Origin: Escherichia coli
Lineage (GTDB): Bacteria > Pseudomonadota > Gammaproteobacteria > Enterobacterales > Enterobacteriaceae
NCBI RefSeq assembly: GCF_024223415.1
Contig: NZ_CP100510.1
Strand: one strand, 5' to 3'
DNA: 1,565 nt
The notes beneath the pieces were generated by a model. The model made no database searches and was not told the origin of the DNA. It saw nothing but the letters and a program-made list of their open reading frames with translations. A program made the position numbers and the translations under genes. This document shows positions 1 through 1,565 of the stretch, one piece after another (positions within the stretch are counted from its first letter, which is position 1; every line of letters starts with the position of its first letter).

Positions 1-49
1 ATGTGCAAATGTAATACCGTCACCCGCGACGATATTCCGTTTGCCATCT

Positions 50-74
50 GGTCAGGGCTTCGCCCCGACACCCC
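50..74. repeat. 25-bp perfect inverted copy of the oriT hairpin segment (exact reverse complement of 1386-1410)
   Basis: GGTCAGGGCTTCGCCCCGACACCCC at 50-74 is the exact reverse complement of GGGGTGTCGGGGCGAAGCCCTGACC at 1386-1410. The asymmetric flanks (1 nt one side, 5 nt the other) also match, so this is a true inverted duplication and not just the hairpin's own near-palindromy. Identity stops exactly at both ends. Confidence 0.9.
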
Positions 75-110
75 GCATCAGTGCGTACGTGCTCAATGTG
101 GTTTCCGGTT

Positions 111-171
111 CTCTTCCGCTTCCTCGCCCACTCGCTCACTAACGTTCGGTCGCTGGGGCTGCGGCGAGCGG
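111..171. other. Conserved ColE1/pMB1 origin-proximal block (candidate primosome-assembly / single-strand-initiation site)
   Basis: CTCTTCCGCTTCCTCGC (111-127) and GGCTGCGGCGAGCGG (157-171) are identical to the flanks of the block CTCTTCCGCTTCCTCGCTCACTGACTCGCTGCGCTCGGTCGTTCGGCTGCGGCGAGCGG that I recall lying about 45-125 bp downstream of the replication start in pBR322/pUC (similar in p15A); the middle is diverged. Same orientation as the oriT match. Function as a pas/ssi site is inferred. Confidence 0.55.
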
Positions 172-476
172 TGCCACCTCTCGCATGTTGTCGGTGATTC
201 CGCTGTTGTTCTTTCGGGGATAAGTCGTCAGATAGCCCTTCAAACGCGCTCAGAAGCTCTCAGACGCACGAAACGGGGTTTAAATGCCCGTCAGGGCATG
301 GAAGGCGCGAAAAACGCTTACAGAGCGTTTCAGGAGGTCAGGCGCGCCGATACCCCTAGCCAGGGGCTTTCAGGTCGCCAGGAACCGCGCCAGCCCCCTG
401 CAAAGCCCATTTGCACGGTACAGGCAGCCACTCGGTTGGTAGGTGGTCGTAGACCGTCGGTGTTACAGCGATGGGG

Positions 477-559
477 GTCTGGGGTTCTCCCCAGACGGTT
501 TCCGGTTGCGCTCAAGGCGCTGCCGGAACCGTGGCGGCTCGATCGTTCTGGAGATCGGG
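477..559. ncRNA. Cluster of three consecutive GC-rich stem-loops; candidate RNA I / RNA II-like antisense-control region (strand, ends and function undetermined)
   Basis: SL1 477-496: perfect 8-bp stem GTCTGGGG/CCCCAGAC, loop TTCT. SL2 497-530: GGTTTCCGG...CCGGAACC outer stem (one bulged T) plus inner GCGC/GCGC stem, loop TCAAG. SL3 538-559: CGATC/GATCG core stem, 8-nt loop GTTCTGGA. Three hairpins in about 85 nt is the RNA I architecture. Weak convergent promoter candidates flank it (see findings). No canonical terminator found. Confidence 0.3.
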
Positions 560-622
560 GAGCAAAAACACGCAAGGGATTTTGAGGCGGCAAAAGAGCA
601 ATGCAGGATAGACAACCCGATG

Positions 623-686: not shown

Positions 687-1166
687 TCAATTTGAAAACA
701 TGGCCATGATTCGGCGCTGAATATCACCGTCTTTGTTGACCAGTGTTTTAGTGACAAACGCCGCGTAGTTTTTAGATGTGTTGTATCCCTTCCAGACTTC
801 ATGTGGATCGAGTGCATACGCACAAACCTTACCAGCAACAGGAATTCTGACTAACGCGTTTTTTGATTCTAAGTAGTTGAGCCAGCGCTTAATTGTGCTT
901 CGGCTAACACCCAATTTATCTGCTAAAAACTGCTGATCGGCAACAACAGCACCGCATGAGGGATCTATGTGCTCAGCTAAAAACGAGTAAAGCGGTATTG
1001 CTACAACTCCCTGCTTGTCCTTCGACAGTTCTCGGATCCTTTCCCAGCCCTTCTGATAAACCTGGGTGAATGGGCCGTTATTTTTCGGATCTGATTCCGA
1101 TTCTTTGTTTAATTTTTCCAGTTCTTTTAGACGCTTTTTTCGCTGCTCTTCAGTCCCGATATACAT
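687..1166 (-). CDS. 159-aa winged-helix (HTH) DNA-binding protein; best guess a small-plasmid replication initiator or autoregulatory maintenance protein (RepA of tiny pKL1-type plasmids, or RepL-like). Family assignment is from memory and unverified; a cargo transcriptional regulator is the alternative.
   Basis: Only long ORF with coding-like composition. ATG is the reverse complement of 1164-1166, preceded by a GGAG Shine-Dalgarno (rc of 1174-1177) with a 7-nt spacer; stop TGA is rc of 687-689. Helix-turn-helix at about residues 77-98 (DQQFLADKLGVSRSTIKRWLNY, encoded about 873-938) followed by a wing-like segment (ALVRIPVAGKVCAYALDP). N-terminal 30 residues are K/E-rich. Upstream region is dense in operator-like repeats. 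Confidence 0.8.
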   Translation of the reverse strand: MYIGTEEQRKKRLKELEKLNKESESDPKNNGPFTQVYQKGWERIRELSKDKQGVVAIPLYSFLAEHIDPSCGAVVADQQFLADKLGVSRSTIKRWLNYLESKNALVRIPVAGKVCAYALDPHEVWKGYNTSKNYAAFVTKTLVNKDGDIQRRIMAMFSN

Positions 1167-1185: not shown

Positions 1186-1225
1186 ATGATGGCTCAAATA
1201 TAAGCCATCATAGCTCAAACGTAAA
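1186..1225 (-). promoter_or_regulatory. Candidate sigma70 promoter of the 159-aa gene overlapping a 9-bp perfect inverted repeat (candidate autoregulatory operator)
   Basis: On the minus strand: -35 TTTACG (rc of 1220-1225), 17-bp spacer, -10 TATATT (rc of 1197-1202), predicted start about 25-30 nt upstream of the ATG. Inverted repeat ATGATGGCT (1186-1194) / AGCCATCAT (1203-1211) has the -10 hexamer in its 8-nt spacer. GCTCAAA recurs at 1192-1198 and 1213-1219, 21 bp apart. Promoter assignment is by consensus match only. Confidence 0.5.
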
Positions 1226-1292: not shown

Positions 1293-1355
1293 CATAATGC
1301 AAGTAGCTAAAAAATCAATAACTTACAAAATCGCCCTTAAATATCTTTTCTGCTG

Positions 1356-1385
1356 AAAGTGTTGCGCAAAGCGGAACACTTTTTT
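1356..1385 (+). terminator. Terminator-like hairpin followed by a T-run on the plus strand, directly abutting the oriT hairpin
   Basis: AAAGTGTT (1356-1363) pairs with AACACTTT (1375-1382), plus an inner CGC/GCG stem around an AAA triloop, followed by TTT (1383-1385) and then GGGG. The T-run follows the hairpin only on the plus strand. No convincing upstream plus-strand promoter was found, so the role is uncertain. Confidence 0.3.
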
Positions 1386-1446
1386 GGGGTGTCGGGGCGA
1401 AGCCCTGACCCAGTCACGTAGCGATAGCGGAGTGTATACTGGCTTA
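1386..1446 (+). other. ColE1/pMB1-type origin of transfer (bom/oriT): recognition hairpin plus conserved nic region; predicted nic CTGG|CTTA between 1442 and 1443
   Basis: GGGGTGTCGGGGCGAAGCCCTGACCCAGTCACGTAGCGATAGCGGAGTGTATACTGGCTTA matches my recollection of the pBR322 bom region (GGGTGTCGGGGCGCAGCCATGACCCAGTCACGTAGCGATAGCGGAGTGTATACTGGCTTA) with about 2 substitutions; the 36 bp ending at CTGGCTTA are identical. Imperfect hairpin GTCGGGGC-GAA-GCCCTGAC at 1391-1409. Which strand is nicked is assumed from the motif orientation. Confidence 0.8.
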
Positions 1447-1565
1447 CTCCTCTGCAAGCCTTACCAGCTGTGATTTTTGCCAGATTTCACGCTCTCAACG
1501 TTCAACAGCTCCATCATGGTTTTGCCGTCCGTTCACCGCTAAAACGCCTCAGAAATCGGGACAGG

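Follow-up and report, generated by a model that had tools for sequence, protein, structure and literature searches.

The window, as we call the whole 1,565-nt stretch of Escherichia coli DNA analysed here, is a complete circular plasmid (1565 bp) of the Col(MG828)/pKL1 family with a single gene, repA. MOB-suite assigns it the replicon type Col(MG828). Over their full length, more than 20 PLSDB records (1563-1566 bp; E. coli and Klebsiella) match the window at 99.7-100% identity, and this pKL1-type Rep family is encoded in about 580 PLSDB records. The 1564-bp plasmid NC_017629.1 of E. coli ABU 83972 is 99.8% identical. Compared with pKL1 RepA, the RepA of the window is about 86% identical over aligned residues 26-159. 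The features on which the analysis draws are listed below.

1553-1565, minus strand: IncI-type oriT, part 1, with nick region GCACATCCTG/TCCCG, continuing over the circle junction (alignments)
1-75, minus strand: IncI-type oriT, part 2, a degenerate 17-bp inverted repeat and a second, inverted copy of the GGGGTGTCGGGGCGAAGCCCTGACC hairpin at 50-75 (alignments, PMC3817090)
609-636, plus strand: top plus-strand promoter-like site, TAGACA-16-TGnTAACAT, running antisense through repA towards the hairpin
687-1166, minus strand: repA, the sole annotated gene, encoding a helix-turn-helix protein (159 aa, HTH_36)
1186-1248, no strand: three iteron-like 21-bp direct repeats that overlap the repA promoter (repeat search)
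1197-1225, minus strand: repA promoter-like site, TTTACG-17-TATATT, score 12.0, the top of the whole plasmid
1242-1289, no strand: two tandem palindromic Rep operators, TAGCTCACACATGCGTGAGCTA and a 92% copy (repeat search)
1313-1325, plus strand: perfect IHF consensus AATCAATAACTTA (WATCAANNNNTTR), inside the A-rich stretch 1293-1355
1356-1382, plus strand: the stem-loop under study, 11-13 pairs with one GxG mismatch and loop AAA (folding, covariation)
1380-1385, plus strand: T6 run, of which 1380-1382 are stem bases and 1383-1385 belong to the oriT module (sequence, covariation)
1387-1446, plus strand: ColE1-type oriT core, with an inverted repeat at 1388-1411 and nick region GTATACTGG/CTTA at 1434-1446 (alignments)

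Read along the plus strand, the repA promoter and iterons are followed by the Rep operators, the IHF box in its A-rich stretch, the hairpin and the ColE1-type oriT, the hairpin starting 30 nt past the IHF box. This position, upstream of repA with Rep-binding repeats and an IHF box, fits a pKL1-type oriV. For pKL1, an oriV with Rep sites and an IHF box has been reported on the upstream side of rep (PMC3832669).

Transfer origins and other non-coding features

The plasmid encodes no relaxase and has two head-to-head oriTs, ColE1-type and IncI-type, nicked on opposite strands. For the ColE1-type oriT, we take both the nick position and the nicked strand (plus) to be as in the ColE1 literature. 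The IncI-type oriT is nearly always 84-89% identical to the sequence directly upstream of nikA, as found in more than 1,200 conjugative plasmids. In an IncI-gamma/K1 plasmid (one record opened), the match spans the nick region, the 17-bp repeat and the same GGTCAGGGCTTCGCCCCGACACC hairpin (cf. PMC3817090). One relative, L016 (1822 bp), lacks the IncI-type oriT block of ~88 nt.

The GGGGTGTCGGGGCGAAGCCCTGACC hairpin is a component of both ColE1-type and IncI-type oriTs and precedes nikA in IncI plasmids. Because both oriT types contain this same hairpin, the window carries inverted copies of it at 50-83 and 1377-1410 (88% over 34 nt, 25 nt identical), separated by about 204 nt when measured through the circle junction. 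In addition, the CloDF13 nick sequence GGGTG/GTCGGG (PMC5935869) corresponds to GGGTGTCGGGG at 1387-1397, in the left arm of the oriT repeat, so that a third relaxase type might act here. In CloDF13 itself (L064), a small hairpin, GGTGC-GTCCA-GCACC, and TTTTT lie just 5' of the nick sequence at 9752-9762.

Elsewhere in the plasmid, some records list a "hypothetical protein" of 194 aa at window positions 1-585 on the plus strand. This ORF crosses the IncI-type oriT and a ColE1-like non-coding block, and is probably spurious. The sequence TCTCTTCCGCTTCCTCGC... at ~100-235 resembles what we take to be the ColE1/pBR322 bom-ori stretch with its primosome assembly sites. A G+C-rich backbone at 235-620 is conserved family-wide with neither a gene nor an Rfam match, and contains a perfect hairpin, GTCTGGGG-TTCT-CCCCAGAC, for example at 477-496. 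Just past the repA stop, at 623-640, stands a perfect 18-bp palindrome, TCAAATGTTAACATTTGA, overlapped by promoter-like sites on both strands (plus 609-636; minus 653-620).

Within the A-rich stretch, all lineages, Aeromonas included, have a TATCT(T/A) or TATTCT motif 12-22 nt past the IHF box (window 1337-1350; L002-L015). In L013 and L014, the motif reads TTATCTAAA, which resembles a DnaA box. Upstream of the hairpin in the window, inspection by eye for DnaA boxes found nothing above the weak TATCT-type motif.

The stem-loop and the question of a transcript

Two types of plasmid need to be distinguished. Type A is the window variant, with 26 near-identical PLSDB plasmids. Type B, with about 380 plasmids, comprises most family members, pKL1 included, and has another Rep N-terminal half, other operators (TGTCGCATCCAGGATGCGACA in place of the TAGCTCACACATGCGTGAGCTA-type Rep operators) and AAGGG(T/C)GTTGCG-loop-CGCAACGCCCTT at the place of the stem-loop. 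In type B, other sequence stands in for part of the palindrome at 623-640, and the 21 nt at 655-675 are missing.

The first-pass annotation had described a terminator-like hairpin and T-run at 1356-1385, specific to the plus strand and adjoining the oriT with no transcript in sight, and these exist as described. Positions 1356-1382 read AAAGTGTT-G-CGC-AAA-GCG-G-AACACTTT (a stem of 8 bp and 3 bp around one GxG mismatch, with a 3-nt loop), followed by TTT and, from 1386, by the GGGG of the oriT repeat; the repeat search returned 12-nt arms (92%) 3 nt apart. Folded as RNA, 1350-1392 reaches -16.3 kcal/mol (z -3.56), a value equalled by 0 of 200 shuffles. With DNA parameters, the plus strand gives -10.9 (z -3.9) and the minus strand -8.3 kcal/mol. 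The T-run stands 3' of the stem on the plus strand only: the minus strand has A6 before the stem and CAGCAG after it, and a minus-strand terminator was ruled out because no T-run follows the stem there.

As in Rho-independent terminators, six T come directly after the stem-loop, and on one of the two strands only. A genuine plus-strand terminator or insulator at this place would stop RNA running antisense through repA and oriV, whether it comes from the 609-636 site or from pervasive read-through, as on a circle of 1.5 kb, and would so keep it out of both oriTs. A scan of both strands of the whole plasmid for T5+ runs preceded by a folded 30-mer ranked the site first (-13.0 vs -8.0 for the runner-up), and when the whole plasmid was dinucleotide-shuffled 300 times, 4% of the shuffles held an equally good one. 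The standard terminator scan of the plasmid missed the hairpin, presumably because its rule wants an uninterrupted stem whose loop does not exceed 8. Rfam 15 (E<=1) gave nothing near 1356-1385 and two chance-level matches elsewhere in the plasmid.

Promoter scans bear directly on this explanation. As previously annotated, there is no convincing plus-strand promoter at 1290-1355, where the best PWM match, TAGACC-19-CATAAT, scores 6.1 vs 12.0 for the repA promoter. Nor was anything convincing found between repA and the hairpin in types A and B. The plus strand has no gene and no promoter within 190 nt upstream of the hairpin, and the hairpin is not at the end of any plus-strand transcription unit. 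The sole decent site lies 720 nt upstream, at 609-636; it is the best on the plus strand (10.9 vs 12.0 for the repA promoter) and points at the hairpin, which favours a terminator, but in type B it loses its -10 (which becomes TAACAC). The suggestion that the hairpin ends a short RNA from the repeat region therefore finds no promoter to support it in the PWM scan. A short primer-like RNA from a CTTACA...TATCTT promoter was also ruled out, the spacer being 14 nt here, 13-15 nt in other lineages and 17 nt only in type B.

ColE1-like plasmids offer a further comparison, since their rop runs toward the same oriT. In three such sequences, no T-run-type terminator was evident by eye in the interval between rop and oriT. 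Shielding a ColE1-type oriT from transcription therefore seems to be no general requirement, a point that weighs against a terminator.

Conservation of the stem and composition of the T-run

A blastn search with the 103-nt sequence 1290-1392 returned only the 26 near-identical plasmids and missed the 75%-identical type-B homologues, which were recovered via whole-plasmid and RepA searches. A pattern search of contigs with AACAAYAACWTACA-N-TATCT was too loose, with chance matches in A+T-rich genomes and nothing usable. The plasmid pIGWZ12, which we had taken for a relative, was ruled out as a Rep_3 plasmid.

To assess covariation, we aligned 11 distinct variants taken from PLSDB plasmids and 43 metagenome contigs. 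In a common register of 13 pairs, 95% of cells are paired, compared with 35-64% when the 3' partners are slid. Two adjacent stem pairs switch from A-T to G-C between variants, a third is found as U.G, U-A and C-G, and the GxG mismatch of the window is a G-C pair in type B. Within type B, there are three stem substitutions, all of which keep or improve pairing; the remaining changes lie in the loop, apart from one insertion in a single contig. The stem-loop of pKL1 is of this type (AAGGGTGTTGCGTGCAACGCAACGCCCTT).

The T-run has a different history. It is 6 nt long in type A only, and 3-4 nt in type B, pKL1 included, where C's at the covarying basal positions leave only TTT(T/G) before GGGG. In the window, T1380-1382 pair with A1356-1358 at the stem base, and the oriT module begins with 1383-1385 (TTTGGGGTG); the TTTGGGGTG junction also occurs in the ColE1-like L061 and in L016. 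Since the basal T's covary and TTT starts the ColE1-like oriT block, the T6 run is composed of three stem bases and three oriT bases, and the first T's of the supposed U-tract would have been selected as stem bases. To judge from the aligned variants, it is the stem that is under selection, and the T-run as such has not been conserved. The hairpin exists and has been preserved in evolution; that it looks like a terminator is for the most part a coincidence of the 1565-bp variant.

These observations reduce the case for a terminator without removing it. At least 3 T follow the stem in every variant, and the U.G pair of most type-B copies fits plus-strand RNA only. However, the roughly 380 type-B plasmids, with a U-tract of just 3-4, do not pass the simple terminator rule, the two strands differ little in folding energy, and, compared with Rho-independent terminators in general, the internal mismatch and the A-U-rich base are also departures. 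Taken together, we regard a genuine terminator or insulator as somewhat unlikely, though a serious contender. The earlier idea that the hairpin insulates the oriT fares accordingly: it is possible for the type-A variant, and weakened by the short T-run of the far commoner type B and by T's that covary as stem bases.

It could also be argued that the hairpin is a neutral palindrome, without function, at a recombination junction between modules. It stands exactly on the boundary of the oriV and oriT modules, and the p of 0.04 from the shuffles is hardly compelling. Against this view stand the compensatory changes, seen in two independent lineages (the second is described below), and we give it scarcely any credence.

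The stem-loop follows the Rep module and lies outside the oriT

A 91-nt junction query matched 4,779 plasmids, with nearly all alignments starting at 1387 and ending near 1446 and a few starting at 1382-1383. The hairpin lies outside the oriT block conserved among these plasmids. For example, one ColE1-like mob+ plasmid is unrelated to the window as far as ...GACC, after which TTTGGGGTGTCGGGG is identical, and three ColE1-like plasmids have other sequence between rop and the oriT repeat. L015 and L016 have the same oriV-oriT junction without the hairpin (L016 by eye). The hairpin differs between types A and B while the adjoining oriT is 100% identical.

What the hairpin does follow is the Rep type. 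In all 41 metagenome contigs with both features typed, hairpin type equals Rep-operator type (A-A and B-B only). The recombinant L002 (NZ_AP027611.1) has the backbone and oriT of the window, to which it is equal over 1-880 and from 1383 on, but the rep 5' half, operators and hairpin of type B; its breakpoints lie near 880 and 1383. As an observation on the family as a whole, L002 represents a module exchange of the Rep specificity block and shows the pKL1 family to be mosaic. A role for the hairpin as a Rep operator was ruled out, its 5' arm GTGTTGCG being common to types A and B despite wholly different operators.

An oriT function was therefore weighed against this pattern: the hairpin might be an accessory or alternative oriT element, such as a recognition repeat for a relaxase or accessory protein, or an aid to transfer termination on the ColE1-type T-strand. 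It directly adjoins the oriT, on what is presumably the nicked strand of the ColE1 type, and lies 3-5 nt from the GGGGTGTCGGGGCGAAGCCCTGACC hairpin that the oriTs of both ColE1 (bom) and IncI1 R64 use. It also stands 9 nt 5' of GGGTG/TCGGGG, the equivalent of the nick reported for CloDF13 in GGGTG/GTCGGG (PMC5935869), where a small hairpin, a T5 run and a repeat are arranged in a similar manner. However, the CloDF13 hairpin is unrelated, its spacing is 17 nt vs 9 nt, one base of the nick motif differs, and the window encodes no MOBC relaxase. The hairpin is likewise absent from both the ColE1 and the R64 prototype contexts, from the 4,779 plasmids with the same core, and from ColE1-like mob+ plasmids. 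The proposal of a second structural element of oriT is not supported by these comparisons, and we consider such a function very improbable.

In a second Rep lineage (L013, L014, L187, L188; Col(KPHS6)-like), the stem-loop is an unrelated one, AAGATCCCG...CGGGATCTT, placed at the same offset from the IHF box (+23..+51 vs +30..+58 in the window). It covaries as well, with two both-sided compensatory changes and 90% pairing vs 28-44% when slid. It has no T-run, which is a further point against a terminator, and in L014, the only member checked for this, the nearest oriT repeat is about 190 nt past the hairpin.

Other lineages have no hairpin at that place (L008, L009, L010, L015 and, by eye, L016) or a weak one (L007); L012 was left out of this survey because the scan found no IHF box in it. 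The hairpin is thus recurrent but not universal in pKL1-type origins, and such sporadic occurrence would be natural for an accessory terminator. Beyond the origin, about +60 to +140 past the IHF box, L007, L008, L009, L010 and L014 have a long inverted repeat, GGGCATTTTTG(G/A)GGGTCAAGG ... CCTTGA(C/T)GCTCAAAAATGCCC, preceded in L008 by a canonical-looking CCCGCC-TTTC-GGCGGG stem.

On the strength of these sequence comparisons, the better-supported assignment of the hairpin is to the replication-origin module of the pKL1-type plasmid, and not to the oriT. The oriV of pKL1 (Burian et al.; NC_002145.1; 1549-bp plasmid) belongs to the same family and has the same order of Rep sites, IHF box, stem-loop and ColE1-type oriT, but differs in its Rep N-terminal half and operators, in a G-C rather than A-T stem base, and in a T-run of 3 rather than 6. 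In the literature covered on pKL1/MG828 plasmids, to which the original pKL1 papers do not belong, no account of the stem-loop was found.

A possible role at the origin

Our tentative reading, which we hold with less than even confidence, is that the stem-loop serves the pKL1-type oriV as a structural palindrome on its outer edge. From its place there, we infer a part in replication initiation that might proceed as follows. RepA and IHF would open the A+T-rich stretch, and the adjoining palindrome would fold back on the displaced strand, the plus strand folding slightly better. The folded palindrome could then delimit or stabilise the bubble or, alternatively, offer a structured single-strand entry for the host priming or helicase-loading machinery. 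In the 1565-bp variant, the A-T basal pairs would happen to abut the TTT of the oriT module, giving the T6 run and the terminator look, and any termination at the hairpin would be a secondary or accidental property.

Known origins have a similar anatomy. The lambda ori has iterons, an A+T-rich region and a 28-bp palindrome, and the RSF1010 oriV has iterons, an A+T-rich region and an inverted repeat that holds ssiA/ssiB. The likeness, of initiator repeats, an A+T-rich or IHF region and an outer-edge palindrome, is one of anatomy alone: neither origin has sequence similarity to the pKL1-type hairpin, and the window encodes no plasmid primase.

Several observations count against an origin palindrome. 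The hairpin is missing in several family members, there is a small strand asymmetry in folding energy, and the terminator features of the window variant are objectively good. In addition, a double-stranded cruciform is disfavoured by the imperfect pairing of the palindrome (GxG in the window, T.G in most of type B).

A related possibility is that, once the plasmid has entered a recipient by conjugation, the hairpin acts as a single-strand initiation signal from which the complementary strand is made. On the ColE1-type T-strand it falls close to the 3' end, on the IncI-type T-strand inside the first ~200 nt, and it is predicted to fold as single-stranded DNA on both strands. At 27 nt, however, it is far below the sizes that we take G4-type, phiX-type or Frpo-type signals to have; the plasmid already has a putative ColE1-like primosome-site region at about 100-180, and the second-lineage hairpin occurs in plasmids that MOB-suite types as non-mobilizable. 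Such a post-transfer signal is, in our judgement, decidedly improbable. A broader version strikes us as a long shot: the pKL1-type origin would have in the stem-loop a dedicated signal for single-strand entry or priming, used also when the plasmid arrives by conjugation. If it held, a relaxase-less 1.5-kb plasmid would pack a replication start, complementary-strand priming and two hijacked oriTs into about 300 bp.

In summary, the two leading readings, an origin palindrome and a terminator, are both known kinds of feature, in a well-known cryptic plasmid family, and the wider significance of one small cis element in a cryptic plasmid is modest. Nevertheless, few replicons are found more often in E. 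coli assemblies than the 1.5-kb pKL1-type plasmids, and only repA is annotated in them. Placing the stem-loop in the origin module, and not in the oriT, would correct the annotation of the non-coding two thirds of the plasmid.
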